A stretch of DNA of 63,496 bases, filler included, from Intoshia linei (Eukaryota; Animalia; Orthonectida): assembly GCA_001642005.1 (NCBI GenBank). It is 8 parts of 8 records of this genome, joined end to end, with 100 filler letters (N's around TTAATTAATTAA, not from the genome) between each part and the next. Parts side by side here need not be neighbours in the genome. Positions count along the whole stretch, not along the records: positions 13,186 to 32,643 come from LWCA01000731.1; 7 more parts are not named here. One strand, written 5' to 3'. Made by a program: the position numbers and the translations under genes. Of this stretch, positions 1,976-50,389 are shown in pieces. Position 1 is the first letter of the stretch; each line of letters begins with the position of its first letter. The notes below the pieces were generated by a model. It ran no database searches. It had not been told where the DNA came from and saw nothing but the letters and a program-made list of their open reading frames with translations.

Positions 1976-2104
1976 ATTGATAATAGTTAATAGTAGAATT
2001 TTTAAGTTAGATTTTCAACGTGAATTTATTTTTTTGGTATAATAAAAAAGTGCCCTTGGCAGAGCTAGGTGTTGTTTGTACGTAGTACAAAACTGCCAAG
2101 CTAG
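1976..2104 (+). mobile_element. Putative non-autonomous Helitron 3' end
   Basis: Nested hairpin CTTGGCAG...TTGTAC-GTA-GTACAA...CTGCCAAG followed by CTAG|T; a homologous copy lies at 51416-51533. Confidence 0.55.
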
Positions 2105-2141
2105 TATATTATAATATGTATATTTAGTAAGTATATTATAC

Positions 2142-8100: not shown

Positions 8101-11100
8101 AAATTTTTTTAAACTAATGTACAAAAATAGTTAAGAAATATAAATAGTATCTACGGTAATAAAATATTCTACAAAGTGATGAATTAAATTTATCATTTTT
8201 AAATTCGTTTTACTGTTTTGCTTACAATAGTACTTAAAAAATATTTGAGTGGAAGCATTTAAAACATTTTGACCCAGTTTATATAAATTCATGTCTTTTT
8301 TTGAAATTATATAATTTTTTTAAAAATGACGAAAAGTTTGTCTGTGAACTGTGTCTAAAATAAACGATTTTTTATTGATTTATTTTAATTAATGTGATTA
8401 GTGTCTCATGATCTATGTTATATCTCATAATTATATCAAATGTAAAGTAACTATGGAAAAACAATGTTGCCATATTTTATTACTATGAAAAATGTTAGGA
8501 AAACAGAAAAAGGTAAAGATGCGGGGGTTTTTTGTGACAAAAATAAAAAAATTATATCATTCTGTAGCAAAATTAAATAAAGACTATTATCTATATGTGT
8601 TTTTAAAATTTCAAAAAAAAGTCAAAATTGGAATAGCCCTAATGTGGATCATAAATATATTCATGTGCCCCATGGATAGTGAGAAATGTGCCGCTGGACA
8701 ATAATAAAATAATTACTTTCACATTTTGGATATGTTACAGTCAATGTATTCCTATAACTGAACGATCCTTGTGTTCCGCATGTGTATATATTTGGACTTG
8801 CAACAAGAAAAGCAGAATTTTTTGGACATTTTGGTGCGCAGTGTTTAACTGGATAATATCCAGTTGAACAAAATTGAGTAGCAAATTTATCAGCAACATT
8901 CAGTTTAGGAGTTAGACAAAGCAATTCTGAATAATAATGTTATGAAAATAAGTTATGCATATATAATATGTATATTTACCTTGTACGGTATAATAAAATG
9001 AACATATCGCAGCATTTTTTGAAGCATCATATGCAATGTAAACAATATTATAGGTATCAGGGTTAAGAGAAGCACCGAGTGCATAATTTGATTGTGGTGT
9101 AGTTGTCGCTCCTTCAACTATTGGTATATCCCAACTACTTTGAACTTTTCCAGTAGATGTAGTGTGTATTTTATTACTGGGACAGGATTTAAATATGGGA
9201 GAGATTTTATCTAAAAAAATGAATTATACCGATAAAAAGTCATTATAAATAATCAATTCGCGACATTATCCATTTTTTGGATAAAATCAAAGCCAAGAAC
9301 TATAAAATTAATTTTATTTGCTAACCTTTTAGTGGCGTCTTGCAATTTGCGCCAGTAAATCCAACAGGGCAGACTGACACTACTTCGGTAACTTTACTTG
9401 GTCTTATAACGGATACACCACTACCAATCATATATTGTCCCCAATGTACCATCAAATTAGGTACAACAGTACTAGTAGGTGAACCAGATAAAGTCGAAAT
9501 TTCAGTATGAGTCAACTGTTTTGACCAACCAGTGACTCTTGTTATTGAACCAGTAATTTTAGTATTTGCAGTGAAATCATGATTATTTGGTGTATAAGCC
9601 GCTCCAAGAGAAACAGTCCCACTAAATCAATTATAAAAACTAAACATTTAACACTGTACTATTTCGCCAATTTTTTATTTAATGCATAGTTATTCATAGT
9701 ATATTCTTTAGCTGAATTTACATAAATTTCCAAATTTCCAGCTACATTGTCCCAAGCAATAACAACATAATACCATTTTTCAATAGAAAATAGATTAGCG
9801 TTAAATGTGTAAGATACTGATGATGCAGGATCAATTGAAACTGTAATCTTCTTTACATCAAAATCAATAATTTTACGAGCATCAACAATAGAAAAAGAAG
9901 ATCTAAATGAATTTATAAAATGAATTTTAATTTAATCATACGTCAATTCAAATAATTGAAACAATGTGCCACTTATCGTGTCCAATTTAAACCATAATCC
10001 AAACGTTAATGCACTTGAATCCATTAAAAATGGATGTAAACTTCGAACTCCTTGATTTTGTCCATTTGAAAAGAATTTCAAATCAAAATCAGGGTTGGCT
10101 TCTGTTAAATATATTACATTATTAAGGTTGACAATATATTTAGTTACCCAAAAGTATTCACAAAATAATTAATAATATAATAGTTATCATAATGGTTGTA
10201 AAATAATCATTTTTATATTTATCTCAATTATAAATGTAAAAAATAATAATAATGTATTGAATTTACTTGACTTGCAATCACTGCTTTCATAACCAGGAGG
10301 GCATAATATATAATATGTTCCAATTCCATCAATACATTTGGCTGGAACCACAATATTGACATTTAAACAATTATCTTTACTTTTTTCACATAAAGTGCCT
10401 TCAAAATCTAAAAATTAATATTAGTAGTTTTAAAGGTTAATATTATACCCAATTGACATTGGCACACATACTTATTACCATCATGCACCAATTTTCCATT
10501 GTTTTCGCATACAATTTTTGCACAAGCCTTTTTATTATATTCACAATATGATCCAGAGTAATCTAGATATACATGATATAGGTATAAACAAGATAATATG
10601 TATTTTATAGTAAGAAATAAAACTACCTCCGACACAGGTGCATGTATATTTGTTAACGGCTTCGACGCATGTGCTACCAGCTCCTAAACATGAATTGGCA
10701 TCACAATAAGTCAGTTTTGTTTCACAGACATTTCCAGAATAACCAGTTGTACACCTGTAATAAATTTTGTATTTTTTTATTACAAATATATAATAGTATA
10801 CATTAATATATAATTTTATACTAATTAATATTAATATTAGTAATAAGTCATTATAATACTTACGCACAGTAAATATCGTTAAAAATAGTATTGCATACGC
10901 CGCTATTTTGACATGTTTTTGTTAAACATATATTCAGTGGCTCGTCACAATTTTTTCCAGACCAACCAGCTGTGCAACTGCACGAATATGCATTTAAAGA
11001 ACTTGTACAGGCACCATTAACGCACGGATTGTGATTGCAATTGTTGTGAATAACCTGAAATAAAATAATTAAAGAGTAGTTAAATTAATTACATATTAGT

Positions 11101-12892
11101 CATACCTCAAAATGGATTTAATTGGTTATATTATAACAAAAGGGAATAAAGATACATAATTAAGATTTACTCATTTTTAAATCAACCCTTTAACAATTTT
11201 TTTTAAATGGGCCTAATTAAACTTTTTTAGCATGGTGGAAAATTGTTTTCATATTTTCCACGAAATTTAGAACTCTCTGAATTACACGTAAAAAAGTGCT
11301 ATCTAAATACTTTAATGTAATGGTGTAGTTATACTTACACTACATAAATTGCTATAATAACCAACTTTGCATATACATTGGAAAAGTAACTGAGATTCAA
11401 TTTCATTACATCCTTTATTAGGCAAAGTGACGTCCGTTCCAATTGCCGAGCATTTATTAGATGCACAACCAGCAATATATTTACTACAATCCTTACCGCT
11501 GTAATCAGTGCCACAAGCACATGAAAAATCATTAACCAGGTCAGTACATTTTTTTTTATTTTTGCAAGGATTTGGAATACAATTATCAATATTTACATTG
11601 CACGTTGCACCTTTATAACCTGTAGCACACGTACAAACAAACGTATATGTTCCCTCTTTACAAGTTCCACCATTCAAGCATGGATTTTGAGCACAATATA
11701 ATTTAACTCCACATTTTCCCAAATTTAACGAAGTAATTGAATAACCATTTCGAGCAGAAGTATAAACAGCCGGTGCTGAAATTTGAAATATTATTAAAAA
11801 TTAGATTAATATTACCGGAATTATAATCGCTGGGACAAACACAATATGCTTTACTTCCTTTGTAAGAATCAATGCACATTTCTGTAGCAGTGGTACATGT
11901 ATTTAAGCCACAATACTTTGGAACTGTAAAGCAGAACGTTCCAGTATAAGACTCTATACATGTACATGTAGCTCCGTTAGTGGTAGATGCACATGTTCCT
12001 TTTGGTCCACACGGTTTTTCCAGACAATAATCTAATTAATATATTACATGTATGATATGATATGATAGTATATAATAAATATAATAAATGAAAAACAAAC
12101 GATGATGTACTAAGTAGATTATACTTAAACAATAATAATTAAATAATTATTTTACATACGAATGATTAACATATAATTAATATCTATTATAATAAAATAT
12201 AAAATTATCTAAAAATATATTATAGAAATAGGCGTATTGAAGGAATAATAAATAAATACATTGAATATTTATATATGTAATATTTTACAATTTAATGTTA
12301 ATGGGTTAACTAATTATTTACCTATTTTTGTCGCACATTTATCACCATTATAACCTTTTGGACAATTACATATGGATCTAATACCGTATGAAACGCAGGT
12401 ACCAGCATTGCTACATGTTACTTTTGTGCAATAATCAAATTTAGTAGCGCATCTAAATAATAATTATATTTACAAATAAACTATTTTATTCACAAAAATT
12501 TATATTAAATTACATAATTATCATATACGAAAGTTCTTTTGTAAAATAATGGATATTAAATAAGTTTATTAATTTTTCATATATTAATAAATGGGGTGAC
12601 AATGTGAAAGATTTTTTATAGGGATTATGCATTTCAAAAAGTGTGAACCGTCAATAATTAATGGGTTCATAATTTTAATTTTCCGTAATTTTTCCGGAAG
12701 CGTTTAATGACATCAGTATTCTCTTATCGAATTGTAATTTAATTTTTATAATGTATTACGTTGCACCAGTAAATCCATCACGACATATACAAGTAAACCC
12801 AACAAGGGCATCAATGCATGATCCACCATTTGAACAAGGCGCTGCAGCACAATTGTTTGTAGTTTTAGTTTCACAGTTTACTCCAGTGTAAC
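2142..12892 (-). CDS. Large extracellular multidomain protein (EGF repeats, pentraxin/LamG, HYR, ~23 Cys-rich ephrin-receptor-like/GCC repeats); SVEP1/Uninflatable-like architecture; partial at both ends
   Basis: GT-AG EGF exons at 12760-12892, 12322-12452, 11816-12031, 11339-11775, 10864-11054, 10627-10754, 10449-10562 and 10267-10407. LamG/pentraxin-like exons ~9325-10101, HYR ~8980-9210, a further exon ~8715-8925, giant exon 3594-7361 with 20 ~54-aa CxxCxxGxYK repeats, and single-repeat exons ~2952-3119, ~2348-2503, ~2142-2307. Confidence 0.9.
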
Positions 12893-12926
12893 CTATTTAA
12901 ATAAATGAATATATATCATATATATT

Positions 12927-13085: not shown

Positions 13086-14384
13086 NNNNNNNNNNNNNNN
13101 NNNNNNNNNNNNNNNNNNNNNNNNNNNNNTTAATTAATTAANNNNNNNNNNNNNNNNNNNNNNNNNNNNNNNNNNNNNNNNNNNNGTCTTTTTTGATTTC
13201 AAATATTTTCAAATGGATATTCGTAACATACACAAAATTTCTCATCTTTTCCCGTGGGCTATTTTTTGTTTAATCAAAAAAAGGTGTTTTTGGACACAGG
13301 TTAACGAAAAATGATCAATAGTAGAAAATAATAGAGTGAATACCTGGTATAATCGCTCAAAATTTAATAGCCCATCAAATTTTATAAGCAGTCCAGTAAA
13401 ATAATCTAATTTTTCAGTATACTTTTCCTGGTCTAAATACAATAATAAACGTTAATAATAATTAAAATGCAAAATGACTATATCACGTATAGACAATATA
13501 CCCGTGAGCTGTTTACATCCAGACCGTTATAATTTTTATAATAAAAAGTATTTTTTACTTAATTAATTTAACATTCTAAATTGTACAATGTACATTATAT
13601 AGCTGTTCTCTATTTATATAATTATGTTTGTAAAATGAAAGTCCTGTTTGCATTTATTATAGTCATTTTTTAAAATTAACGGTAATGGTCGGAAATCATA
13701 GGAAATGAATATTAACTATGCCTTAACTACATCTGAGACTTTGAGTACCTTCAACCATTGCTCATAAACAGTATTATAAAATAAAATTTATAATATTTTA
13801 CGATTTTTAACATTATTTTTTATTGCATTCAAATATGAACTCAAATTTTCTTAAATTATTTAAATTGTATTGTTAATTATTTAATGTAATTTTAAAAATA
13901 TAAATCAAATATTTTCCATTATTGAAACATTAAAGATCGCAACTTTCCTTAATATTGTATTTTTATTGGAGATAATAATTTTAAATTTAATTTTATTTTT
14001 ATGAATGTCACGTATTAGTATCATATACGTCATTTCCGCAAATTATTATTTTTATACATTTATTTATTTACTTAATCATGCCAGGAAATTCTATTCATAA
14101 TAGAACATTAATCTAGTCAAGTGTTTCTTATTTAAATATCTACCGACTTTATATCATTATTGATGAAATTATATAATGATTCGATATTATTCGTAATAGC
14201 TAAGTAATTTTCCTAACTACAAGGAATTTGTAAGTTTATTACGTTTCATATTGAATTTAGTGTATAATTAGATTATTCATCCAATATATAATTTAGATTT
14301 AAAAAAAGTTCAGTTACATTAATTGTATCGTTACAAGTTTGTATTTTTTCAATTTAATATTTTGTGAGCCTTTAAAAATAAACA

Positions 14385-15630
14385 AATACGAGTTGCGTTA
14401 TTTTTGAAATGGAGTGTACTACACATAAAAATAAATCCATTGTCGTAGATAGTATAGTATCCGACTTCCCACTACATAAAAAGGCGATCAACACTTATTA
14501 TTTATCAATAAAAAAGATTCCCAAACCTAATCTCACGCTAACTACGTTGTCTTTATATGCTACCTTGCAAACAATAGTATTCCATTCGAAAGACATTAAT
14601 GCCGTATTTTGCTCAAAGTTCATGGAGTTGAAGCGACGCATTATATATTATCTAAAAGATCATGTCAAATTGTATTGCGACATGTCACCGAAAGAATTTG
14701 CACATGAATTGACAAAGATAGATACAGACGTGAAGTACCTGTTTAGCGGTGATGATTCTATTTTGATAAATAAGCATAGTCATGTCGAGGTCGATAAATA
14801 AAATACGATAAATCACAGAGAACTGTTGCACTAAAGTTTGACTATGTTGTTAAAATATTACGGCATTCCACAATACTATATTAATTTGTAGTACAACAAT
14901 CATTTCTTGTCAATAATTTACAAACCTTTGATAAAATTGAAGTGAATGGTACCGTCCCAGCGTAAATCCAGTCATGCGTCCACTTTCATACTTGATACTA
15001 GTGTGTACAACTACTGTGTTTTTTTTACTCAATACGGTACTAAGTACTTTTTTTTGCTTAAAAAAACTCGGTACAGTACAACTAAGTACTTTTTAAATTT
15101 TTAAAACTCAGTAAGTACTTAAGTACTTTAAAAAAAAGTCAGTAAAAAGTACTTTAAAATTTACAATACATCACAAACAATTACATAATAATCTTTATAC
15201 CATTAATAATTATTTATTATATTATACATATTAATAAATTATTGATGTACAAATATTGGTGTATATTATATAGGTATTTAACAATAAGTGAATATAAGTG
15301 TAAATAAATAACCATATATAATACAAGTGTATAACAAAAATGTTCCATCACTATAATGTAATTTAAAACTTATAAAATATTTACAAATACAAATACATAA
15401 ATTCAACGTAATTAAAAAAATTAGAATCAAAATATATATCAAATAATTAAGTTAATTAAAAAGTACTTTTAAAAAATTTAAACACCCTAATTAATACTAC
15501 GTTTCTAATGGGTATATTATCAAACTAGACAAGGTTTAATGATTTTACGATTGACATAAGTAATGGTTTTAATGTTGATTACTCCTCGTCGAAATATGCT
15601 TTGAAACTTGTATAAAATCAAATAAATTAG
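14385..15630 (+). pseudogene. Endogenous viral element: virga/nege-like (Martellivirales-type) RdRp with permuted motif order C-A-B
   Basis: IKKIPKPNLT...YATLQTIVFHSKDINAVFCSKFMELKRRI resembles tobamovirus-type ALQTIVYHSKKINAIF. Motif C FSGDDS at 14742-14759; motif A EVDxxKYDKSQ at 14787-14818 (frameshifted); motif B QRKSSHASTFI at 14958-14990, resuming as NTTFLMGILS after the MITE at 15490. Confidence 0.9.
14999..15489. mobile_element. hAT MITE inserted into motif B of the viral RdRp
   Basis: TIRs TAGTGTGT / ACACCCTA, internal AAGTACT(T) repeats, and a degenerate 8-bp TSD CTTGATAC (14991-14998) / ATTAATAC (15490-15497). Confidence 0.8.
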
Positions 15631-16739
15631 AGGGATCATCCCATTATTTCCCTCGTTAAACACTTGCAACAAAAGTAGATATCTATTTAGCAGTAGCTAA
15701 CAAAAAGGAAATATATTGGATGACGCAGCAATCGAATATTACCTCTCAGGTCATAAAGGACGTGATCACTCCATAATTAGGACTGTGACCTGTACAATGA
15801 GGAGATCTCAGTGAGTGATTTGTCAATGATTGCTGAATAATTTGCAGGCTGGAATTTAAAAAACATTTACAGATTTGTTAGCTCCATCTTGTTAACAGAC
15901 ATATAAAGGAAACACAACAACATCATGTCCAAGGATAAAATCAAAATGTTTGACTCACGGTCAATAATATGATACCACATGTCATTTGAATTGGGCAAGA
16001 AGAGTGCTTACCCTTCTAGAGCACTATCTCACCTTTACACGTTTTTCATCACGTATCTGGCTTCATGACTCTACAATGCAATACTCTTTGCAATATACTT
16101 GTTTGTGTATTGTTTGCTCATTGATATCTTAAGCAGATACCAATAATTTCAAAATCTAAATCAAAAAGTATTTCAAAACAAAGTTATGTTGGTTGGTTGG
16201 TCTTTCTAACGAAGAATTCACCATATAAGAAATGAAAGAAAACAATACCAAATTAAAACATCTCATAATTTGTAATGATATTACTCAGCTTGTACAGAGA
16301 CTTAAAAAAATATAAAAATTGGAATGGAAATGGAGTTTTTTTTACATTCAATTTTGAATTAAACAAAATTTATCGTGTCATGTAGATTTATTTGAATTTG
16401 ATCAATATCAATAATATAAAAATAGCAAATATAGTAAAAATAGCAAACCGCTTTTACATAAAATTTACATTTCTTGCAATTAAAAAGATACGCTATCAAA
16501 TATTTTTACATATGTTTACATACTTTCATACCATACGCCCATTAAATGTTAAAATATAGAATAATTACAGTAGTTATTGTCGTATTCCAAAAGTACACTA
16601 AACCAAAAATGACTTTAAGATGAATCCATCAGTTTACATTATTATGTCATCCATCAATTCAAATTCACAATATTATTATAAATACATAAATATTATGATT
16701 TATGTTTATTATTATGCTAATCAAAATTTAGTATAATTA

Positions 16740-17380
16740 TGCACAATTCAACATCACTTAATGTTGACAAAACGATAAAATCATGAAAATGTTGAATAAC
16801 GAAACATCAATAAATAAAATAGCTTTAAATTTAAAACGCGATCATCGCACAATCCGTTGATATATAGAAAACCCCTCCAACAAAAAAAAAAAGCAAAAAG
16901 ATCATTCCAAAAAGTATCTGTTAAAGATATATCCCATATTAAACTAAAAATGGTTCGAAATCCTCTTAGCACTTCTTTATAGATATTTACTTAATCAGGC
17001 TTAACTAATATACCCAAAACTACGAAATATAGAATATTAAAAACGTTTGGTAATGTCAGGCATGCTAAAAATAAACCAGGTTTAATCAAACGACACCTGG
17101 AATTGCGACTATCATGAGTTAAAAATCACATAAAGATAAATTTTTCAAATGTAATTTTTACCGATGAAACCAGAATATCTTTAGATGGGCCAGATTCGTA
17201 AAGTAAGGGTTGGTTACTAAATAACTAATCACCACCAAACCGTTTAAGGCGTCATCAAGTGGGTGAGAGTATAATAATTAAAGCAGGCATTGTGAAAAAC
17301 ACTATTATTGGACCTTTCAAATTAAATGATGAAGTCAAAATTCATTCTGAAACATACTGCGCGTTTTTAAAAAATTTAAT
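16740..17380 (+). mobile_element. Tc1 transposase remnant
   Basis: KPGLIKRH...NVIFTDETRISLDGPD...AGIVKNTIIGPF...SETYCAFL with stops and frameshifts. Confidence 0.8.
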
Positions 17381-19039
17381 ATGTAAAGTTTATTTACATT
17401 TTTTTTGCTTGCATTTAGTTTGAAATACAATAGACTATATAATTTAAATATTTTAAAAAATTTATTTATTCGTATTAACATTGAAATTATTGTTTAATAT
17501 TGATTTGCATAATAATTTGGCACACCAAAAATCACAAAATTTTCTTAAACCTTCGTGTATTCATTTTTTTTGAATACATAACAGTTTTCTATAGACGTTA
17601 AAGTATTATTAGTTGAATAAATAAATATTATAAAAAAATTAATAGAATGAAGTGACTCCTTTTTAAATTATTAATGTTTTTAATGTTTGCATGATAACTT
17701 GAAACGCAGTGTATAATTATGTAATAAAGACAAAGAGATTTGATACGATATAAATACGATATAAAGTTATATTCATTCTAGAAAGGACTGTAGTGCATTT
17801 TACACGAAAATTCTTCGTTAGATAGATCGAAGCTTCAACAGCAAATATATATAAAATAAAATGTTATTATTAATTACATAATTAACACAAAATTATAAAT
17901 TAATAAAATTTGTTATTTTTGTAAATGACTCGACTAATCTTCATCGACCTTTAAAAAAAATAATTAATTGCAACATATACTTATTTCAACTCGTCAATAG
18001 AAATTGAATAAATATTAATAGTTATTGCATAAATAATAAAATATTTTGACATATAGTGCCGGTCAAAACACTTGGAACCGCCCAGATAATGTTCATTAAA
18101 ACTTAGTTAGATTTTCAAATATCAGCAAAATACATCAAAACCTTAAAATGGTGGACTTTAATGTAGAGGGAAATACAGATGTGGACAGACTACCTGCTCC
18201 ACAACAAGCTCGCACTCACGTAACCGACGGATCTAAGGCTAAACAATCGGCAATAATGGAAAGATATACCAATCAATGTACGAACGTGGACATACAAAAC
18301 AAAAAAAATATAACAGGAACTGGAAAAAATCTAACAACCGGTAATCCGCCAACGAATATCGAGCAGCTATGCAATCCAAAATCATCTTCTCAGTCAGACA
18401 CTAATACGTTGAGAAGGGACAACAGACATTAGCGACCTCTAGTACATCCAATCAAACTCAGAAAAAGCATTGGCACAAAAAGTGGTCCGGGATGCGTAAT
18501 ATAAATACAAACTCTATGTGTAGCGGTAGATCAAATATGAGTTACTCCAATCGGGTGAGCGGCGTGAAAACAGAAATAGGCAGGGATCTATTCAATGTCT
18601 TCCGTAAATAGAGAAGGAATACCCCCATGCCGCCATAGTATTTCGAGATAACAGGAAGATTCTTTCTTCTTTATCTAGGGAACAACAAATAATATTTTCT
18701 TCTTACATAGACATGGTAAGGTACACTGTGAAAAGATTGGCTGGGTTTGTTAACCAAGATCACTTACCACGGAACATTGTATCGGAAATAATAAACCATG
18801 GTATAGATAAACGCGTGTTCACCAGAGAAGTCACAGACTTCTCCAATGTCAAATTTACAACAAATGTTAAAGACAAGTATTCGAGACAAGCGAAAACTCT
18901 CAAAATACTATGTAATAGCAAACTGATGAAACGTACACTAAATCTTTGACAGAGATAATTAAAAACGTGAAAAAGTGGACTGGTTTGTACTCCGGACAAT
19001 GGAATATGATGTGGCCATACTAGTTGTTAAGAGAAATAA

Positions 19040-20257
19040 GGTAGAAAAATGAATAAATAGCGTTAAATGTTTTGTTTGTGATCTTGACATTATTATGGGG
19101 TTACAAAAGTGAAAGATAAAATATCCATGTATATTTTGTCTTTTTTATGCGACGACTAGAATCCATCATTATTCAACCCTAGTTTAGCGACTAGAAATGA
19201 AAATGTTATTGGTAAATATAATGCCAAATTTCCTATTCTTATTCCATCAAAAAACATCATCCCTCCTCCGATCCTTATTAAATTTGGACTTGCTAGACCA
19301 TTTATTTGTAAAATTCAAAGAAACCCTCTTAATTTTCCTACAGTAAATCATGTTATAAAACATTTGTTTCCACATATATTCGATGCAAAAATATTAAATA
19401 GAATTTTTAGCGGACCACAAATAAAAAAATTTTTAAATGTAAAGAAATTGATATTTCTATACAAAAATTCAATTACGTGCTTGGAAATCGTTTAAAAATG
19501 TTGTAAGCAATTTTTTATATAATAAACGGGTTACTAATTACCGTTCCCTCGATACTAAATTAATGGATGCGTATTGTGCAATGGGATGTCTTCTAAGTCC
19601 AAAAATGTATTATTTACAATATAATTTAAATATGTTTCCTTATAATTGCGGAGCCTGGTCCGATTAGCATGGTGAGAGGTTCCACCAGCAGCTCCTCATT
19701 TAATAAAATTATTTATAAAATGCAAAAAATTTTATTTTATTTGTTTATTATATAAATTTTTACTTTAATTAAATTTTATATTCATCTATCTATATTTTCA
19801 AATTTCGATCTCATTATTATCATTATTAAAAATGACGGTATTATTAAATACACAAAAAAAATATCTATATGATCAATTTTAAAACTATCTGCTATAATTT
19901 TTATTAATAAATTGTACTAATTTAATGTAACTTGTGTTTTATGAAAATGTATTTCTTTTCATATATTTTATTTTTTTAATTTTTTAAAATAAAGACAATG
20001 TCTAATAACACAGAATTACGTAACAAAATTGTGTAATTGTACTGTTAATTCATTCTTAATTACAATTTTAAAAATTAGAAAATGTATAATGTTTATAGTT
20101 ACTTAGTTATTTACACATTTTAATTACTAATTTAACAACGATTTCGATCTGGAAACATTCCAAAAATTATATCAATCTAATTTTCTCAGTTTATATTTCA
20201 ATGGTACATAAAATTATCGATGCTATAATTAAAAAATTTTTATTTTTTGACCCAGTG
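19040..20257 (+). mobile_element. Chapaev3-like (CMC) DNA transposon remnant with right terminus
   Basis: MGLQK.KIKYPCIFCLF, IIPPP..IKFGL, IFSGPQI, AMGCLLSPKMYYL, WSD*HGERFHQ; ends ...TTTTTTGACCCAGTG|TAA. The superfamily name is from recall. Confidence 0.65.
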
Positions 20258-22213
20258 TAATATTATAAATAAATTATATCAAAATTAATTTAGTCACAAT
20301 TCGATTGCCATTGTTGTAATACAACAATAACCCCTAATATTGAAGAATTTTGAATGTCTAGTAAATCTTCAAATTTTGGTGGGCCCTAGAACGGACCGGC
20401 TAATTATTCTTTTTTTTTGATTTGTATCAAAAGAAACGCAGTTATTTATAAATGTGAACAAAGTAATCTCAAACAATTCACAATAGACAATGATGCAAAT
20501 ATAAGCGACTTAGTGATAGCTAACAAAATCTAACAAAATTCTAAATTTAATTTGTGTTTAAAAGTTTTTGAATGAAGCGTATAATGAGATAAACGACACT
20601 GCTGATTTAGATAGAGTTTTGACCAACATCATTTTCGAATATTATTACACCCAAGTTGGACTTGATTTTGAAATAACAAGTAATAATACATATATTCATA
20701 AAGGACTATAAACATTGATCCTATTATGCTACTCCTATAACGATATTCAAACAGATTCTTAAATGCACTAGGGCGAACAGAGTCAATTATCATAGCTAAA
20801 TTAATAATTTTTTAGCATTATAAAGCATTTTTACTAATTATATTTGTTTAAATTAGTGCTACCATAAGTACTACTAAGTTAATAAGTACTACTGTTTCGT
20901 TAAAGTACCAGTTTCGAAATTGTAACAGTGACACTAAGTGGCACTCAACCAAAGTTTATACTTAATTCAATGTAATTCAATTTGAAAAAATTGAAAACTT
21001 TTAATTATTTATGCAAACACTTATATAAACAACCATTTTATCCTTTTTTTTATATCATTGATAGAAAGGAATTTAGTTTTATCTCGTCAAAAAAATGTAC
21101 TATTATATATAACAATGTCGGTAGGTATGCGTATCGAGCCTTTACTTAATATCAACTTAACTGTTTTCAATGTAATAAAATTATCAATAATATCAAAGAT
21201 TTCTAATTAAACATATTGATATAATAATATTTGTTAGTCCAAAAATGATTGGATATATCATTCACACTATAGGCATCGCATATATAGTTAATAGCACAAA
21301 TAATTGAAATAATGATTAAGTAAAGTAACTTAGACCAAAAAGTTAAATCATTTCACTTTTTCATATGATTTTTTAAAGTTACGATTTCATTTTATTTATT
21401 ATTTGTTACCGAATTCTGAAATGCATGGAGAATTCAAACATCTTTAAAAACCAAAAATGACCAAACCAAGCTAAAAATAAATTTAAAAAACAAAACGGTT
21501 CACAAAGAAAGATAAACACACCAAATGGCAGTAATTACCAACATAATTATCCATAGATACAAAATAAAAACTGATTATATATAGAATAGTTATGTTTTAA
21601 ATTTATCTTAACATTTTTATATAAATTTCAATAATTACATTTGAGAAATTAATATTAACCGATTTTATTTTTTTTAAGTGATAAATGCTTCAAATCACAA
21701 AGGCATCCACATGCAAAATTGGTTTTCTAATAAAAAAAACATCAAAAGTGGACACCCTAATGTATAATGTATGAAAGACAGTAGTAAAATTTTTAAATTA
21801 TAAACGAAATTTTTCGTTTCGTGGGTTTATGTTTTACCGTCTAAGACTTAATTTATGTTCTTAACCCAGTTTAAAGATTATATAAAGCTGCATATACAGT
21901 TCATGGTAGTAAAACTATTAATATAATTACATAGAGTCTGTAACATTTTCTTATTTCCATCGGCGGTATATTGTTTATTCTTATAAACACTAAAATAAAT
22001 ATCTATAATAATTTAATGAAATAAACCAGATTAGATGTGTCGAAAGTACCAAACGAAAAAAATGATAAGTTCAATTTATAAATTAATATAGAAATTTTCA
22101 ATCTAATAAATTAACTTATTCCTCGTCAAAAACAATCAATATTTTATCTCTTATCAGCCATGTGTGCTACATTTGCAAAAGAAGATCAACAAATAAGTCC
22201 TATAAAAATAGAT

Positions 22214-22509
22214 CAGCGGTTCTCAAATGGGGGTACTGGTACCATAGGGGGTACCATAAATTATTTTGGGGTACCAATTCGTCTATCCTATGACTCACAC
22301 TTAATGATTCATAAATTATAAATATTTTTATAATTTCATAATAAAATTATGCATCTATTTTTGACGAAGTAGAGTTTAACTAACTATTTATTTAATTTGA
22401 TTTTTTTAATTCACATATAATAGTTACAATAAATAAAAATTATTATGGGGTACTAAATTATTTTTTTTTAGTTTAGGGTACCAACTGCGAAGTATGTTAA
22501 AAACCGCTG
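22214..22509. mobile_element. hAT MITE
   Basis: TIR CAGCGGTT / AACCGCTG with a perfect 8-bp TSD AAATAGAT on both sides. Confidence 0.9.
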
Positions 22510-23049
22510 AAATAGATACAGGGAAAGCTCCGTCAATAATATAAAGACAATTTAATATCTAAAATCAGGTTAATTTCTATCAATACCCCGTCATTCTTGA
22601 AAATAATGCATATAATACAAACGTTTTAATCAAAAAATTTCAAGTTTCGGTGAGGTTTAAAAAGCAAAGTATAAAGAGAGGTATAAAATTACTAATATAT
22701 TTTCTTGTTCTCCCTACGTAAGATTCTACTGATTAAACCCATTTCAACCAAAATCTCAACATTTTCCATTTTATTCAAATTACATGCATCTATTGGAGCC
22801 TAAATATAAATTTAAAAATATATTTGACATAAAAATACATATAATGCTGAAGATAGGTTTTTTCTTGTGCACCCACTTATACCACAACATTGTATATGAT
22901 AATACAAAGTCATAAAATACGGTAAGCCATATGGGTGTATGTCAACACATTTTATTAATATTTGAGATATGGATTTTATTGGGTCTTGGCTGTGGGTTTC
23001 CACAATTTCTAGAATATATGTATTCGATAAAAATAATAGTAACTACTAA

Positions 23050-23400
23050 TAATACTTTAGTCAATATAATTACTACAGTAAAATTATTAAACTAAATTTC
23101 AAAAAATCTTTGATAAATATAATCCGTCAAAAATTTTCCATACAGAAAATAGTCGAGACTTTAAAAATAGTAAACTAGAAGCTTGTAACAAAATATTGGT
23201 TTGTATCGTTCACGGTCAGCCTAGACCCCCAGTCACGAGGACAAGTAGAACGGTTTGTTTTAATGTCATTTTTATTTTATCAAATGTAGTGGCAATCAAA
23301 CCTTAAAGATGTGGATCGGTAAAATGTTGGATGGTTATAAAAAATAGATAAACGTAATAGATGCAGTCGTATTGGTTGATTAACTGAATATGTGATAGAT
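23050..23400 (+). mobile_element. Integrase-like remnant (Ginger/SCAND3-KRBA2 type)
   Basis: PSKIFHTEN..., then HGQPRP/QSRGQVER, resembling HGRPRHPQSQGSVER. Confidence 0.55.
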
Positions 23401-24399
23401 GAATAAGTGTCTTGGTTGAAATCTCAAGTAAATCGATGTAATTTTGTGAATATGTCAGAATCAATTAAAAATAATGGAAGAATTGCGATGTAACATAATT
23501 ATGTCATATACATAAGTAAGATAAATTTCACTATGTCAAAATGCATTCAATTAAATTTATTTATATAAATGTATAATAGTTATAGTGATATACAGACATG
23601 ATGATAGTGATAACAATATAGATGACATGGTTTCTATTATTTTGAAATTAAACGAGCTATTTCATTATCAATCAGTTGTATTTTCAAATTTTCAATATGC
23701 ATATAAAATTAAACGGTTCATGCAAGAAAAAAACTGAAAATAAAATTGTAGAGGTACATGAAGAAGGTGTAATCATACAACTTGATCAAAGAAGTAATAA
23801 ACAGTGCATGTTTCGATATTTTCAAAAAAGACAATTTCTTTTTTGCAACACTTGAATTTCACAAAAGAATAAATTCTTGTACTTCATCACGGCGTCGAAA
23901 GTAAATACACTACATTTACTTTTTTAATTGTTATAGTTACATTGTCTCAAAAAAAAAAACAAGAACGAATTCCAACATTGTGTAGTTTTGGATGATGTTA
24001 TTATTATACTTTATTTGTTAGTAAAATTATTCGTATATAACAGTCTAGGCTTAAACATAGTCAAAAATTCAAGCTGATATCCAAAATATTTGGAATTAAT
24101 GCGAATTTCAATTAATTCAAAAAACAATAGAAAGAATGAGTATTGCATTTTTGGAACTTTTGTCGGAAAAATTGTAGAGCAACATGATACGACCACAAAA
24201 ACTTGATGTAAATTTCCCATTTACATTACTGGCCGTAGATATAACTTATCTAAAGATGTTTAAGTATTATACTATTAATTTTACTTATCTTATTGACATT
24301 TTAGACCACATGGGGTAAAATTAAATGCCAAAAAGATGTACGATAGTAAGAATAAGATGAATGCTTTGAAAAAAGCGGTAGCTGTAATGGCCACTCCAC

Positions 24400-25960
24400 T
24401 TCACTATGCGTTATTTTCTCAGGATGCTTTTTTATGTAGTGAACAAAACTCAGCATTTAAAAGAAATTTTAAGTTATCGTGGCTACCCAAAAACACTTCC
24501 AATTTCAATCAAACACAACGTCTATTATTCAACCGTGTGATCAAAGCATAATACGAACTTTTAAGTCATATTACCGAAAAGAAATCAGAGCTCAAATAAT
24601 AACACAAATTGATAATTGTGATAGTTATAATGCAAATGTACTTGCTAAAAAAATATCGGTTCTTATTGGAGTTCATATGGTAGCAAGTTATTGGGTGCAA
24701 GTGTCTATACAAACAATACAAAATTGCTTTAAAAAAGGAGGATTCAATTAAATAAATACCATAAATCTACATCTCAAATAGATAATAACAATGACAGTGA
24801 ACTATATGATACGGAATTTCAACAATGGGTGGATATTAGGGTGTCACATCGTTTTTAAATTTCTATATTTTTAAAGACGTACCATGTGGACTAGATGTAT
24901 TTTTAAATGCAAACCAAGATATAAAAGACCATTTTTGAAAAATGTAAGTAACGACGTTGCGGTGATGAATTAAGTAATTAGATAAAATATTTGTAAATTT
25001 AAGTTTATTTTTGTATATTTCTAATAAAGTCATCAAAATTTATTCAAAACTGACACTATATTTTGGATTTCTACTTCGTTTTTAAACACATTTGAGGCTT
25101 GTTTAAATTTTTGTAAAGCTCTTTCGGTTGCATTATTCACAATTGGAGCAATACCAATATTTATTAAATTTTTATTTATATAATAATTGTAATTATTATA
25201 CTTTTCTTTAGCTGCTCGAACTATACCTTTGAGATGAATTGATTCAATAGCCATTATTTCCCAAACTTGCAACATTTTTTTGTCATTTTTAGAAGCAACC
25301 TTGGCATCTCCACAGTTTAACCAATATATTATGTAACCATAATATATAAATACTATAAATGACTTCATATTTTTCGATTTGTTTATACCAAAAATGTATG
25401 ATTTTAAACAATAAATAATTTTTGCCATCCATCTGGCCTGAGATGCTGCACCAAGTTTTAGTAATTTCATTGGAGTACCATTAAAAATGCTTGACAAAAG
25501 TTTGCAGCATTCACTAATTTATAATTATATATTATATAATAAGTAAATTATAAACAGAAATATACAAAAATAAACTTAAATTTAAAAATATTTTATCTAA
25601 TTACTTAATTGATCACCGCAACGTCGTTACTTACTTTTTTCAAAAATGGTCTTTTACATCTTGGTTTGCATTTAAAAATACATCTAGTCCACATATTACG
25701 TCTTTAAAAATATCAAAATTTAAAAACGATGTGACACCCTAATGGATATAGATGCAAATATATAAATTATCTCTGATATTAATGTTTTGGACGTGTACCA
25801 GGTAAATAATGACAAAGGTGATTTGTTAGAAAATGAAACTGAAAATCATAGATATTTTACATCTACAATTTTATTATTTTTAAAGTATATTTTTATTTTT
25901 AGAGACACCAGTAACCGATCGTAAGTTACAAGCAGCCTTGAATGTACTACGTCGCGGTGT
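24400..25960 (+). mobile_element. pogo/Tigger (CENP-B-like DDE_1) transposase remnant, interrupted by a hAT element
   Basis: NTTSIIQPCDQSIIRTFKSYYRK...VSIQTIQNCFKKGGF; EFQQWVD|IDAN is rejoined when 24838-25741 and one TSD are removed. Confidence 0.85.
24838..25741 (-). mobile_element. Internally deleted hAT (hATm-like) element with ~187-bp TIRs
   Basis: Long inverted repeats 24838-25023 / 25556-25741 starting TAGGGTGTCAC; flanks GTGGATAT / ATGGATAT; internal ORF 25033-25497 with GAASQARWMAKIIYCLK and VNNATERAL. Confidence 0.85.
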
Positions 25961-26379
25961 ACCACAAAAATCTAAAAGCTTTGAAAACCATTACGAGAGT
26001 AACGTGTAAACACGTAACCTACTTAAAACTATTTCTAATACATAAACATAACTTTAAACTGACAACAACGTTTTACGAAAATATCCAAAATACAAGTTTA
26101 AAATACTTTGTTAATAAAACTATTATATCAATTATTGTTTATACATTGCAACTTTACTACGAGTATGATCGATTCATTCAAAAATTATTACATGCAAATA
26201 CAATACAATCCAAAATTGATGATTATTTCTAGTCCAAATAAATGTTATTCAAGTATTTTTATGTAATATTTTGTATCCATACATTTCAAAAAACCGCTTA
26301 TAGTGATCAAAACTGCTCTGTCCCAATATGATCAATATCAGCGGCGTATACTGTACATATTTTATTAAACTACTTAAAA

Positions 26380-27175
26380 TATTACAAAATGTAAAGCCAA
26401 AACTACTTACCTATGATGACAAATAAAAATTTTCGGCTTTCTTTATTTAAAATTTATTCCAAATAAACTAAAAGTGATAGTACCTATTTTTAAGACAGTT
26501 AAGAAAAAAGGAAAAATCTCAAATGTTAGTAAGATATTCTAATGGTTGAAATCAAAAAAGGTTTGCACACTTTTATGATAAAAATCAAGGTACCAAATAA
26601 CGAATATCAAAATTAATAAAACTTTCCATCGTATAAAAGGTAGTGGACGTCCTCAAATTATCTTGAATGCTGATTTGACTAGAATTCAAAGTGAATTGGA
26701 GCAAATCCAAAAATGGGGTGTACTAAATTGTCAAATATCATGAAAGATCAAGGTAATAAAATTGTTTCACCTCAAACACGAAAAATAATAAGTATGTTTC
26801 GCTAATGACCTTAAAGCATATTCAGTTTGCAAGAAACCAAATTTAAGAAATAGGCATATTGATGCAAGGTTTATATTTGCAAAAAATTACTTGTGGAGTG
26901 GGATAAACTATTGTAAAAACGTTATTTGGTCTGATGAATGCAAAACCAACCATTTCTGGTCCGATGGCAAGCAGTATGTTGGTAGAAAAAAACGAATTCG
27001 ATTCAATTTAAAAAACATTCTCTCCAAAATTAAATTTAACGGAAGTCATTTAATAAATTAGCCATCTTCCAACAAGATAATGACAATAAGCACAAAGCTA
27101 AAATAACCGAATTTTCCAGCACAAGGGAATATACGTGATGGAATGGCCAGCACAGAGTCCAGAGCACTGAGAAAT
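26380..27175 (+). mobile_element. Tc1 transposase remnant
   Basis: GSGRP; KKPNLRNRHIDARFIFAK; NVIWSDECK; IFQQDND.KH; MEWPAQSP. Confidence 0.85.
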
Positions 27176-27199
27176 TTCTCTATCTGATAACAAACTAAC

Positions 27200-27660
27200 A
27201 GAAAGCAAGATATTGGCCATTAAAAATAAATAAGTAAATTATTCTTAATAACTCTAATCAAACTGTTTGAGAAGAATTATAAAAATGTTCAGATTTTAGA
27301 CAAGATTCATGTATTCATATGTTTCTCCATCAATTATCCTAAATCACAACAAAATAAAAACCTTTTCAATGTTATCTCTAGAATTAGCAGAATTTACAAA
27401 ATTAAATATTATTTAAAGTCAACGGAAAAGGTTAATTAATGTAAATTAGTGTGATGAGTTGGGAACGGATAGGCTACCAAACGTTCTACTTTTTGGAAAA
27501 TGGTTTTAGCTTATAGGGATTCTGAACGAGTCTTAGAATTTAAAGAGTTAGCACTTTTTGCACTTAAAGTGTATTGCATCCCAATATGTAATGTTGTAGT
27601 AAAAACAGTTTTTTCTGATCTAAATAATGTCAAAACCAATCAGTTCAAGTTATTCAACAA
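27200..27660 (+). mobile_element. hAT transposase C-terminal (dimerisation domain) remnant
   Basis: FWKMVLAYRDSERVLEFKELALFALKVYCIPICNVVVKTVFSDLNNVKT. Confidence 0.7.
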
Positions 27661-28762
27661 GTTACGTGCTATTGATAATGGTTGTTCATTGGTGGGTAAC
27701 ATGTCAGCAGTATTTATTCAACGACTTAACCAATTATTTACCATGTTACAGTACGATAGATTTTTAAGGTTTAGGACAATCCAATAACAACACATAACTA
27801 ATAGAAATTTGATCGCAAATGTACAAAGAACAGTTTATAAAGTTGTTTTTATAAAAATTCACAATTACGTTGCACAATATGCAAATAATGGAAACACACT
27901 GGTAGTGAATTTTGGGGACGACGATGACATAAATATCGACAATATTAATGAAGAAGATAATGGAAAGAATAGACGCGGTGATTTAAATTTGAATCTTGAC
28001 GATATCCCATACATTGAGACGTATACTTAAAGACTGGAAAATAATAAATGAATCTAATATATCAAATGAAATAGATGGTACCTTCACATGTGCTCGTTCA
28101 TTAAATAGCAACACTAGAGACATCATTATTATCCGAGAAGCAGGTTCACAGTTGGATACATAGGTGCGTAACGCTGGAATAGGAGATGGGCTGGTTAACG
28201 CCACTAAAGATAGATCTTTACACGTTATTAATTTTACCATAGCCGAACAAGAAATTGAATTGACACAAAATTTTTTATACCAACAATAGACTAGGTGGGC
28301 TAACATATATCCAGATGTTAATCTTAAATTAAATACACAAGAATTTTTGAACTTAGTACAGTTAACTGTTTACACCAAAGAAACTAAAGTTTATACCATA
28401 TTCATATAATTTAAATCATCTAGAAGTTAAGCCTGTAATTTCATCAAAAATGGGAACTCAGTCTTAGTTTATTACTATGCTCTACCAAGGCGGTTTCTTC
28501 GTTATGCAAAACCATTCGACAGTAGATATCATTGATCCTTTAACATATAACAAATTTTGTTATGATATATTTAAAGACACCGAAAAATAAAGAATATTTA
28601 AAAAAATAAATCGCCAGAATATCAATCGAGCTAACAACCCAATCTGGGAAAGAGTAAGCCCGGGGTGTAACAAACCTTCTTCAATATGGTCTAAGTACCG
28701 AGATGTATTTGGCTACACTATAAACCGCGTTAATTACGATGAAACACGAGCCGAAGCAATGA

Positions 28763-29331
28763 ATGTATGGGGGCAAGATAAAATATTCATGTATATTTTG
28801 TCTTTTTGATGCAACAATAAGAAAAAATTACTATACAACCGAAGTTTGGCCAACTAGAAAACAATATACTATTGGCGAATATAATGTAAATAGCCTAAAC
28901 TCATTCCATCTAAAAATATTATTCATCCTCTTCTTCATATTAAACTTCAGTTTGTTCGAGAACCCTTCTACTGTAAACCAAATAATTAAAAATTATTTCC
29001 TCACAAACCTAATGCAAAAATATTAAATGGTATTTTTACCGACTCACAGATGAATAAAATGTTTAAATGTGCAAAATTTTATCACTCTATCACAGAAATT
29101 CAACTAGATGCTTGGAATTTGTTCAAAAACATTGTGTAATTTCTGACATTTAAACATTTCTTGGTAACAAACGGGGCCCTAATTACCGTTCGCTTCTAAT
29201 CCAATTAATGAGTGCTTATGGTGCTGCTATGGGATGTCTATTGAGTCCCAAAATACATTATGTACAATGTCATTTAAATATATTTCCTGATAATTGCGGA
29301 GCATGGTGAGAGGTTCCACCAGCAGCTCCTC
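28763..29331 (+). mobile_element. Second Chapaev3-like transposase remnant
   Basis: Clear nucleotide similarity to 19090-19698; GGKIKYSCIFCLFDA...FLGNK...MGCLLSPKIHY...EHGERFHQ. Confidence 0.7.
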
Positions 29332-30100
29332 AGGATACAAATCAAAAATTACCACAACTGAGTTTGAGAAATTTATAGAATTGGTACTATATTTTAAAAT
29401 TATTAGAATTCCAGAGTATATGGAATTTTATTACAAAAGATCCTTAATGTATCAACCACTAATTGCTAATATTATGACATACAAAAAATTGTTAACAATT
29501 AACAAAAATATAAGTTTTCGAAGTTCAGATACAAATTCAAATGGAGAAGAATGTATGTTGAATGTAATAATATATCTAAATGCCTTATTTTCTTCGGTTT
29601 ACTTTGGAGGGTGAAATGATTTGCATTGATAAAGTATTGTATGGTAAAATTTTCAGAAATGGTTAGATTTAAAACATATCTTCCCCAAAAACATATAAGG
29701 AAAGGTATGAAAGTTTATATTATGGCAAATTCAAAAACTGGGTTTGTTTCATCTTTGAAGCTTCACCAAAAATCTGGCTATACAAATAAAAATATCTTAC
29801 CAAAGACTATCAACATAAAAATCGGAAATTGTACATGAACAATTTCTATAACAGCATAGTATTACAAAAACTATGAGGAATATAGGGATTTACTGTTGTG
29901 GAACAATTCGACAGAACAGAAACATCCCAAAAATATTTAATAAAATGAAAAAATTACTAAAAAAAAAAAATGATTAAATATCAAAAGGATAAAATAAACA
30001 CAATTATATGGCATGATAAGAGATTAGTATCTCTAATATCTTCTTTCCACGATATTCCAACTAAAATTATTGGTAAAATTACAAAAATTAATGCTAAGAT
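29332..30100 (+). mobile_element. piggyBac transposase remnant
   Basis: EFEKFIELVLYF...; ICID..MVKF..RFKTYLPQK..KGMKVY; LYMNNFYNS; GIYCCGTIRQNR; WHDKRLVSLISSFH. Confidence 0.85.
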
Positions 30101-30345
30101 ACCACTATCAAAGATGCACATGAAAATACACACTGAGATCAAAGATATAACATGCAAATTTTGCAGAAAGGGTAATCAAATCATTTTATAATTCATTAAA
30201 GGATATTTAGGATTTAATCAACAAGGTAATTTTCAGTCATTCACTTACACATATCGGGAATAGAAAATTTTGCTGTCCTTTTTGTGAAAAAAAAATTTTA
30301 ACAAAACACTTTATCAAATACCACCAAAAACGCATTGTAAAAATT
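30100..30345 (+). pseudogene. C2H2 zinc-finger gene fragment retaining a 39-nt intron
   Basis: KMHMKIHTEIKDITCKFCRKG | intron 30172-30210 (GT..AG) | FNQQGN...CPFCEKKF...H, with frameshifts. Confidence 0.6.
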
Positions 30346-30419
30346 CTAAATAAATGAATACTTATTATTATACTTTTATTTATTTTGTTTTATTTTCAAT
30401 TTTTGTTAACTATATCGAA

Positions 30420-31300
30420 AAAATCAGAAAACGTATGGAAATAATTGAATAAGAAAGGATACGATATTCCTACTCCTTCACAATCAAGTATATGTAGGAG
30501 AGTCATTGCAGATGGTAAAAAAATGGAGAATATGATAACGAATCATTTAAAGGGTAATGAAATGTACTCTTTCATTTTGATGGCATAAAGTTGGGCGGCG
30601 TAAAATACCAAGTCTTATGTTTTAAGAATTGTAAATAAGAAATTCGTGTAGGTGTCATTTCCTTGTTGAATTCAAAAGCATCAACAATTTCTGATGGTAT
30701 TATAAATATACTAGAATCTTATAACTACTGGAAATCCATCAAAATGATAATATGTGATACAACTAACACGAATAGTGGAAGATTTGATGAAAAAATTTGA
30801 GAATCGTTCTCTAGATAAACCCCAATATATTGGGTGTCAACGTCATATCTTGGATCGCATTATGAAACACTATAGATTATGTAGCAGGATGCCCAAGTAG
30901 TTCCCCTAATTTAAATCATCAATTTGTAAAGGATATAACTTTTAATTATAATAATCTTGTAGAAAATTATAAATTTACAGCAACAATGATAGTTGACATA
31001 GAAAATCCGGGATAGATAGCGGATTTCAACTTTTATATAAATTAACAAATACTTTTAAATTTTTCGAAAAATACAATTGTTTTCCAAAAAGTCTGTGGCG
31101 TAAATTGCCGTCAATTTCTATAGCTAAATGGAACCTAAAGCAAAAAATTGTTTTTTATATCATTGGAATTTAGAATCTTCCATTATTAAAATTCCTGAAC
31201 CAAATATTGTTGCCGAGCGAGGTATAAAGGTGATGACAGTACTATGGGACGCTTCTAGGAGTAATATATTTGAATTACAAATTTATTCTGACCAATATGT
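30420..31300 (+). mobile_element. hATm-like transposase remnant
   Basis: LFHFDG, MIICDTTNTNSG, YIGCQRHILDRIMK, SSPNL, VAERGIKVM. Confidence 0.75.
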
Positions 31301-31533
31301 TATAACTATATACAGTTTTGGCCACAAAAAACGCATATATTAACCTTTTCACTGTCTGTATATTCTATACTATACACAGCAATTTCACTTCACACGTCGT
31401 GTATTCTATGATATACACAGCATAATTTTGAAAAACTTTATTCTTTTATTATCATACATTTTCACATAGGTAATTTAAAAATAATACAAGTTAAAATTAA
31501 AACATAAATTCCATACGTGTGATGAATGTACAT

Positions 31534-32643
31534 TAGGGTGTTAACCTAGTTAACGAGAAAAAAAGCATTTTTGCCATATGAGTTCATTTTGTATTCTCTA
31601 CAAGTATGTAAAATTTCAGACTCCAATTATTGACGTAACACACGCGCAAAAAAATTAAAGTTTATATAATATCTTTAAAAATCCTTAAATCAATAAAATG
31701 ATAATCAATTTAAAAAATTAATTAAATCACTTAAGTACATGCAATAAAGAAAGAAAAGAGTTTACGGTGGCCTAATCGATAAGGATTTAAATAAAATGAC
31801 AAGATTACCATCTAAGAATAAGGTGTTTGGAAGATATCACCACCTTATTATGGTGAATTCGGGAGTTTCTAAGACTATTATTTTAAATATATTGGCGAAA
31901 GAAATTAATGATTTATGGACTCGTTTTTCATTGGAACCTATCAGTTTAGGATTAATCAACTTAAAACTGAAAAAAATTATCGTTAGTTACAAGAAGTTAA
32001 TAAAAAACATAAATAGAAATAAAACAAAACCTAATTGGGCTGAAATCCTCAACATCAGAGATTATAAAATCAAATTGAAAAGTGAGGATAAAGTTTTCTT
32101 TAACAATCAAGAAGATAAGACAATTTTATATATATATTAATATATTTTCAGTTATACAAGGGAAAAAACCGAGAAAGAGCCTACAAGTGGCCAATTTTCA
32201 ATATGAAAGATATAAAGATGATGAAGGAATTGAAAACGATTTATCTGATATTAATTATGTAAATTTACCCAATAAACTTGTTCCTACAATGTTGGAGTTT
32301 ATAAATCACAACTAAGAGATTTATAAAAAGTCAAAGGTAACTTCATATCATTATATTGGGCACCTGCATGGTTCACTTCACGTTTTAAAAAAAAGCCTCT
32401 TGGTGTGAATTAGAAGTTTTCCTAAAATCTCATCATTATTTCAAGGCTTAAAATGGTATAAGGAGACATTGGACGAAGAAGGAACACCCATTTGATGTAG
32501 CAGATACAATTGAAATTGCCGAAAGAAGTTTGGCCACTATGGGTAGCTACATCAATAGTGTTAAGAGTAACACTATGTTGAAGTCAAAAACTATGTTAAA
32601 GTTTAATTCCATTTTTGATAACAATTAAAGTATAACTATTTTT
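31534..32643 (+). mobile_element. hATm-like element left end plus transposase fragments
   Basis: Starts TAGGGTGTTAAC; RLPSKNKVFGRY N-terminus; later EIAERSLATM. Confidence 0.6.
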
Positions 32644-46737: not shown

Positions 46738-47039
46738 GGACACCTCAAACTAAAATAATGTATTTACAATTTAATAATGTGTCTTTTCTCCTTTATTGAT
46801 CACANNNNNNNNNNNNNNNNNNNNNNNNNNNNNNNNNNNNNNNNNNNNTTAATTAATTAANNNNNNNNNNNNNNNNNNNNNNNNNNNNNNNNNNNNNNNN
46901 NNNNAAATATATCAAAATCTTCCGTTTACAATGTTATAAAGTCAAACCAAAATATCATTCTTGTTAAAATTAAATGCACCAATGAGAAAAGTAACATTGT
47001 GGCTGAATTGGTGGAAAGGTTGTGCACCCCTGTCATAGA

Positions 47040-47340
47040 GGATCATATACTGGAGAGGATTGTCAAAATTGGTTCAGAAGATTAATAAACGAATGCCTTG
47101 AATCTGGTGTATTATCTCCCACATTTGTAATAGATAATGCTACAATTCATCACAGATTAAAATCAGTTATAAATTAAAATGAAGACGTTGAATTGATTAC
47201 ATTGGCTCCTTACTCCTTTCTGTTAAATCCTATCGAATTGGCGTGAAGTAGCTTCAAAAGCGAAATAAAAAGACATTAAATCGAGGATGTCAGAAATGAT
47301 TGGGTATAGAAGGATTAATGGCATATCCATATGCGAATAC
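47040..47340 (+). mobile_element. Tc1/IS630-type transposase remnant
   Basis: VIDNATIHH...LAPYSFLLNPIELA*SSFK. Confidence 0.7.
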
Positions 47341-47849
47341 GAAACAATTGCACAAGAATCTGTAATTTTTAAATTATATTATAATATACATATTTTAACA
47401 AATCTACATTTGATATTTTATTTTAGATATCTGTCCTCATTCCAATATAATTACTTGGATTTACAAATCATATAGAACGCTATTATCCAGCAATTAGCCG
47501 AGGTGAACATTTGATGGAACATTAAAACTGTACAATTATAAATTGTATAACTGTATTACAATAAATATTTTTATACATTATTGTATGCAACATAATATCC
47601 TCTGATAGCATAGAATTCAACTCAAAATATATTTCAAATGATGCTATAAGTTAGCAATGATATCAAGTTCATATATTCTCTGATCACACCTCGCACCAGT
47701 GGAAACTTTCTAGCTGACTATAAGAGGATATCAGATGTCTTATTCTGCTATCGAATCGGGTATATAAGGATATCATATCGGAGGATGTAATGAATATGAG
47801 TAAATAATGTTAATACAAATATTTATCAGTATGTTAGTCCGTTATTGTA

Positions 47850-50280: not shown

Positions 50281-50389
50281 GGCGAAATATTTTGTGTTTT
50301 AAATCATAATTATTAACTATAATACTATTTTGTAATTATAATAAATTACAGTAATAAAATAAAATAATCGTTAGAATCACCATCACCAA

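Follow-up and report, generated by a model that had tools for sequence, protein, structure and literature searches.

Uni-strand clusters of PIWI-interacting RNAs (piRNAs) that hold antisense viral pieces have been described in insects (10.1101/2022.08.22.504762). In the accessible part of that report, the core clusters of mosquitoes are intergenic tracts in which pieces of RNA viruses and of transposons are co-oriented, and piRNAs as well as readthrough transcription were measured for them. For the uni-strand clusters of Trichoplusia ni, the available text gives a bias of transposon pieces against the precursor strand that amounts to 57.1% of insertions and 79.7% of nucleotides (PMC5844692). 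Drosophila flamenco and flam-like clusters were predicted from strand-biased transposon fragments and confirmed with small RNAs; according to the portion of the source at hand, flam-syntenic clusters span 227-1,085 kb and their bias is specific to, and driven by, Gypsy elements (PMC10643416). Here, we describe a tract of the orthonectid Intoshia linei in which fragments of a virus and of several transposons are similarly aligned on one strand. The tract (positions 13186-32643) is one whole contig of 19,458 nt with 100-nt N spacers on either side, and it is part of a window, meaning the whole stretch of 63,496 nt that was analysed, which has a GC content of 27% and consists of eight pieces with seven 100-nt spacers between them.

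The tract shares with the mosquito clusters the co-orientation of RNA-virus and transposon pieces, and with those of T. ni and Drosophila the bias of transposon fragments to one strand. In contrast to the mosquito clusters, it contains a single viral piece, the rest being DNA transposons, and it is known by its sequence alone. The bias is stronger by count than in T. ni, but that count concerns 10-15 pieces. The tract, which is at least 19.5 kb long, also differs from the flam-syntenic clusters in that no Gypsy piece was found in it.

A blind Pfam scan was made of all stop-to-stop open reading frames (ORFs) of at least 30 aa in the tract, of which 139 are on the plus and 139 on the minus strand (278 in total). 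The plus strand yielded six pieces of viral or transposon type together with one zinc-finger piece, and the 139 minus-strand ORFs not a single transposon or virus family. Searches support five types of transposon, all of them present as short pieces (Table 1). An earlier sequence-only reading of this DNA had seen no recognisable intact gene in about 18 kb, and we likewise found no intact host gene in this contig; Rfam gave no match there either. The same reading had listed at least 12 plus-strand fragments. Nine of these were recovered by our tools where they had been placed, and the other three, one integrase-like and two hATm-like, were assigned by motifs. The observation of the fragments and of their one-strand layout is confirmed. 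The make-up of the tract is also distinct, as repeat families common to the other seven pieces cover 0 of its 19,458 nt compared to 3,715 of 43,338 nt elsewhere in the window (E 1e-5).

Nine of the ten tool-supported pieces read on the plus strand (binomial p=0.021). This becomes 12 of 13 when the motif-only calls are added (p=0.0034), and 12 of 15 when two weak minus-strand traces, at about 15.9 and 22.9 kb, are both counted as real (p=0.035). We also used an annotation-free codon model, whose training set consisted of 18 coding stretches not in the tract and which called 54 of 56 windows correctly in a leave-one-out test. Among 129 scoring windows of the tract, this model gave 36 strong plus and 7 strong minus calls; after control for composition, the numbers were 27 and 12 (p=0.024, with neighbouring windows not being independent). 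The segments without a family name, at 18148, 23480, 25900 and 27790, lean plus in the codon model. In addition, the plus strand has an excess of A over T in all ten 2-kb windows between positions 14001 and 34000, and AT skew reaches 0.12 within the fragments versus 0.041 in the remainder. We conclude that the strand bias in this contig is real, and only moderately beyond chance.

The closest match (72%) of the viral RNA-dependent RNA polymerase (RdRp) piece is I. linei A3Q56_05216, followed by Citrus leprosis virus C and Hubei virga-like virus 13, and identity to its viral relatives is 25-41%. The piece contains in-frame stops, and its tblastn match is interrupted where an insertion of 490 nt came in later; we take the right terminus of this insertion to be of the hATm type. 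With its viral homology, its decay, the element inserted into it and the host transposons alongside, the piece is a non-retroviral endogenous viral element. A second viral RdRP_2 fragment, 72% identical, is present on a different Intoshia contig of 18,950 nt. Viral-family RdRp genes of I. linei, probably acquired from viruses, have been noted before (PMC6396948); they are the same kind of gene, but the accessible passage gives neither their genomic setting nor their orientation.

The only tool-supported minus-strand element of the tract (24837-25741) is inserted within the pogo piece and is the youngest coding element of the contig. The encoded protein is 75% identical to an I. linei protein and 34% to the relative L006. 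The sequence-only reading had singled it out as a young-looking exception with terminal inverted repeats (TIRs), and this description holds; the name hATm is our assumption. Nested insertion at the DNA level is seen in both the viral and the pogo piece. Besides, several transposon pieces retain DNA termini or target duplications, which shows that they arrived as DNA and were trimmed later.

Based on this layout, we propose the tract as a candidate for a piRNA-type source locus of the uni-strand kind, transcribed from the minus strand, a reading to which we give slightly less than an even chance. Elements would have inserted in either orientation; copies antisense to the minus-strand precursor would have been retained and trimmed by deletions to short coding remnants, and sense copies would have been lost. 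For the young minus-strand hATm-like element, purging would be still to come. The minus-strand precursor, the small RNAs and the involvement of Piwi are what we infer. We count in favour of such a cluster the polarity, the five transposon types, the absence of the shared repeats, the co-oriented virus piece and the young exception. To these we add that, of nine window ORFs tried, four are proteins on record, namely three from the tract, all on the plus strand, and one from the last window piece, on a contig of 5,472 nt (the nearest named relatives of the window proteins are from I. linei itself, with one falling in the same 90% cluster), and that I. linei has one Dicer and three PAZ-PIWI proteins, not sorted by subfamily (PMC7943196, Fig 7 source data). 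We also count the introns of I. linei, which are described as reduced in the available text of PMC6736024; in the three other gene-bearing pieces that were measured, stretches lacking a Pfam-supported exon reach 3.6 kb at most.

Several observations weigh against a piRNA cluster. Its assignment is unproven and depends on the layout of the sequence, with the bias of the fragments to one strand (9:1, or 12:1 with the motif calls) being the only cluster feature found. This bias was not significant in a composition-controlled test of 600-nt blocks, of which 21 of 32 were plus (p=0.11). Moreover, the tract was chosen by eye as striking among many windows, and therefore the p values of 0.003-0.035 overstate the case. 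Of 22 other segments, 7 were assigned to the minus strand by the codon model, among them Tc1 piece a and the hAT piece, which are plus according to Pfam; the model is thus weak on decayed sequence. The two minus-strand traces, which gave no family match in domain searches, would also count against the cluster if they were real; two adjoining codon-model windows at 22786-23085 are minus. The polyadenylation motif AATAAA is not depleted on the minus strand (49 seen versus 37.5 +/- 5.5 expected). The three PAZ-PIWI proteins were counted without a split into the Piwi and Ago clades, and the literature search returned no statement on the Piwi-clade identity of the I. linei Argonautes. A flam-like cluster in the strict sense is not what we see, as the tract gave no match to reverse transcriptase, RNase H or rve. 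Finally, the pieces are decayed, and so much of the archive would match living elements poorly. The sequence-only reading had proposed a uni-strand cluster acting as memory. The alignment of unrelated coding fragments and an RNA-virus piece on one strand agrees with the cluster part of that proposal, and a present-day memory is made doubtful by the heavy decay.

The tract might instead be an ordinary transposon graveyard, in which a chance skew appears striking because windows were selected. The modest significance of the tool-supported count (p=0.021) and the result of the block test fit this explanation, as does the size of the pool, since a 42-Mb genome with about 42% repeats (PMC7943196) offers many tracts to pick among. 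Against it, the segments at 18148, 23480, 25900 and 27790 lean plus as well, A exceeds T on the plus strand in all ten 2-kb windows, and the make-up is unlike that of the other seven pieces; we regard a graveyard as rather unlikely, if deserving serious weight. A similar polarity without small RNAs would arise if the tract were part of a very long intron, a readthrough zone or a long non-coding minus-strand transcript, from which sense inserts were removed for their splice or polyadenylation signals. Antisense bias in introns is known from the accessible parts of PMC2911107 and PMC3088655, and the former includes DNA transposons in chicken and fly. Moreover, the possible eIF3i-like piece and the zinc-finger piece are also plus, and if the pieces of the window adjoin, the genes on both sides of the tract are minus, with an EGF gene that lacks its 5' end at 13085. 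Against this stands the length of 19.5 kb without an exon, far in excess of the gaps measured in the window. An EGF-type exon was looked for inside the tract and none was found, nor does one resume beyond it. In fact, three genes are cut by spacers, an EGF/HYR/Ephrin-repeat gene (13085), a coiled-coil gene (44880) and Rad21 (57924), and none of them visibly resumes, which makes adjacency doubtful. As the window pieces are separate contig records, we did not take the flanking genes as physical context, and we consider a long intron or transcript unlikely.

A quite different origin of the polarity would be joint capture in one orientation, either of complementary DNAs joined by template switching or as the cargo of a large mobile element. 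The virus piece was necessarily reverse transcribed, and between 27.4 and 31.3 kb six pieces adjoin with little or no spacer, both as expected for joint capture. Yet several pieces retain DNA termini and target duplications, neither a carrier enzyme nor carrier ends were found in the tract, and Helitrons (0.005%) and Penelope elements (0.002%) are near absent from I. linei (PMC7943196), so that we hold such a capture to be very improbable.

Table 1. Features of the I. linei tract (window positions; ".", no strand assigned; codon model scores given for the plus, z+, and minus, z-, strand).
Feature	Position	Strand	Evidence
Virga/kita-like viral RdRp fragment (endogenous viral element)	14406-15606	+	Pfam RdRP_2 E 9.5e-19 (ORF 14382)
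Non-coding insertion inside viral fragment	14999-15489	.	6/8 target duplication, right terminus presumably of hATm type
Tc1-like transposase piece a	16740-17400	+	HTH_38 E 5e-5 (ORF 16768); HTH_Tnp_Tc3_1 E 0.09
ORF-like segment A (two annotated gene models)	18148-18946	+	Both ORFs on record as proteins; codon model weakly plus
Chapaev3-like transposase 3' piece, 3' end and terminus	19083-20257	+	tblastn E 1.5e-35; terminus motif at 20257
Miniature inverted-repeat transposable element (MITE)	22214-22509	.	Short TIRs, perfect 8-nt target duplication
Putative integrase-core-like (Ginger-like) piece	22950-23340	+	Codon model z+ 2.2 vs z- 0.9
Possible decayed eIF3i host-gene piece, weak	23703-23960	+	Pfam EIF3I E 0.019, 0.01; no PDB match
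Pogo/Tigger-type transposase piece	24170-24836	+	DDE_1 E 1.8e-11 (ORF 24473); interrupted by hATm-like insertion
Young, internally deleted hATm-like element	24837-25741	-	188-nt TIRs (8 mismatches), 7/8 target duplication
Tc1-like transposase piece b	26490-27200	+	HTH_Tnp_Tc3_2 E 6.8e-5 (ORF 26792)
hAT dimerisation-domain piece, weak	27473-27700	+	Dimer_Tnp_hAT E 0.014
ORF-like segment B	27790-28765	+	Codon model z+ 1.9 vs z- 1.2
Second Chapaev3-like piece	28763-29332	+	Relatives' match to window
piggyBac transposase piece	29333-30075	+	DDE_Tnp_1_7 in three ORFs (29294, 29620, 29852), best E 1.9e-5
C2H2 zinc-finger piece	30076-30330	+	zf-H2C2_2 E 3.7e-4, 4.6e-4 (ORFs 29961, 30211)
hATm-like transposase piece	30445-31300	+	Weak match to window ORF 49830-50280 (E 0.001); no Pfam match
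hATm-like 5' terminus and N-terminal piece	31534-32300	+	Terminus motif; codon model z+ 1.8 vs z- 0.6; no Pfam/Atlas match

Chapaev-like sequence was missed by a word-based homolog search and by a metagenome scan, and was found by exhaustive HMMER, in which the query 19452-19664 gave 534 relatives at E<=0.001. When the best 150 of these 534 relatives were compared with the window, they matched the tract only at 18972-19700 and 28763-29444, both on the plus strand. The two pieces (~19080-19700 and 28763-29332) match intact ORFs of 579-608 aa; no search returned the name Chapaev3, which is our assumption for both. They share 69% DNA identity, and their alignment stops at the same codon (19698 and 29332), which suggests a common deleted derivative. 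Tc1 pieces a and b are alike at the protein level (score 64 versus a null maximum of 43). We considered whether a stretch of about 9.7 kb had long ago been duplicated in tandem, giving a Tc1, a segment and a Chapaev-like piece that are each present twice, and rejected this because DNA likeness was confined to the Chapaev-like pair (z 66 versus 0.2 and 1.6). The integrase-like piece at 22950-23340 gave no Pfam or PDB match, and its Ginger-like identity is presumed from a motif that no search confirmed. Likewise, we take the two plus-strand pieces at 30445-31300 and 31534-32300 to be of the hATm kind, and the MITE is presumably of the hAT/Buster type.

Segments A and B are richer in GC, are about 0.8-1 kb long and each directly precede a Chapaev-like piece on the plus strand. 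Segment A, which comes after a Tc1-type terminus motif (18052), gave no match in Pfam, IMG/VR or Atlas (best Atlas score 0.88); segment B gave none in Pfam, IMG/VR or, for one frame, PDB. Both could be further viral remnants. Five related viral contigs match the RdRp piece only, leaving the two segments unmatched. PDB searches gave nothing significant for 15481-16260, 20282-20800, 23091-23303 and 23481-24200; on the plus strand at 15780-15960, a slight resemblance to the lid of an FtsH-type AAA-ATPase (PDB E 0.52) is below significance. A search of sequencing runs with 22641-32640 listed three matching runs of unspecified type and no RNA run, a result that carries no information on expression.

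Elsewhere in the window, an almost intact Gypsy-type integrase with RNase H (421-1340, minus strand) runs up to a spacer. The minus-strand gene at 2104-12896 is extracellular, large and made up of multiple exons. It carries EGF, LamG and HYR as well as Ephrin_rec_like repeats, which number more than 20 and of which 20 are in a single 3.8-kb exon; its 5' end is lost at the spacer. The host genes within 33609-63496 encode DUF4551, GatB, RRM, a coiled-coil repeat protein, a HAT/TPR protein, a ubiquitin-like protein, the Rad21 C-terminus, RhoGDI and Ras, and a 3.6-kb gap separates the Pfam-supported exons of GatB. A smaller series of plus-reading pieces (Tc1, Kelch, hAT and hATm-like) is present at 46905-50300. 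Relative to minus-strand ORFs of the same contig (52080-54068), this series lies downstream and is antisense, and it is possibly a small echo of the pattern in the tract.

The one-way island is real and moderately significant, its viral fossil is real, and the candidacy of the tract as a piRNA cluster, although unproven, is reasonable and of a known kind. Should it be false, the tract would be left as a graveyard of the ordinary sort that contains a single viral fossil. Beyond the note on viral-type RdRp genes, our literature search, which mostly did not extend to subscription papers, found no piRNA cluster or endogenous viral element described for Intoshia. The tract provides a precise locus together with a precise prediction, namely minus-strand 1U small RNAs. 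If the cluster reading is true, the known range of this arrangement would come to include a highly reduced spiralian parasite, in which strong antisense selection would act on DNA transposons instead of Gypsy elements. In its fullest and distinctly more doubtful form, the finding would mean that an animal among the most reduced, of a parasitic annelid lineage, has a compact uni-strand piRNA cluster, built almost entirely from coding remnants of DNA transposons with RNA-virus and possibly host-gene pieces added, which would serve as a memory against viruses and transposons in the manner of mosquitoes and could be found by strand bias alone.

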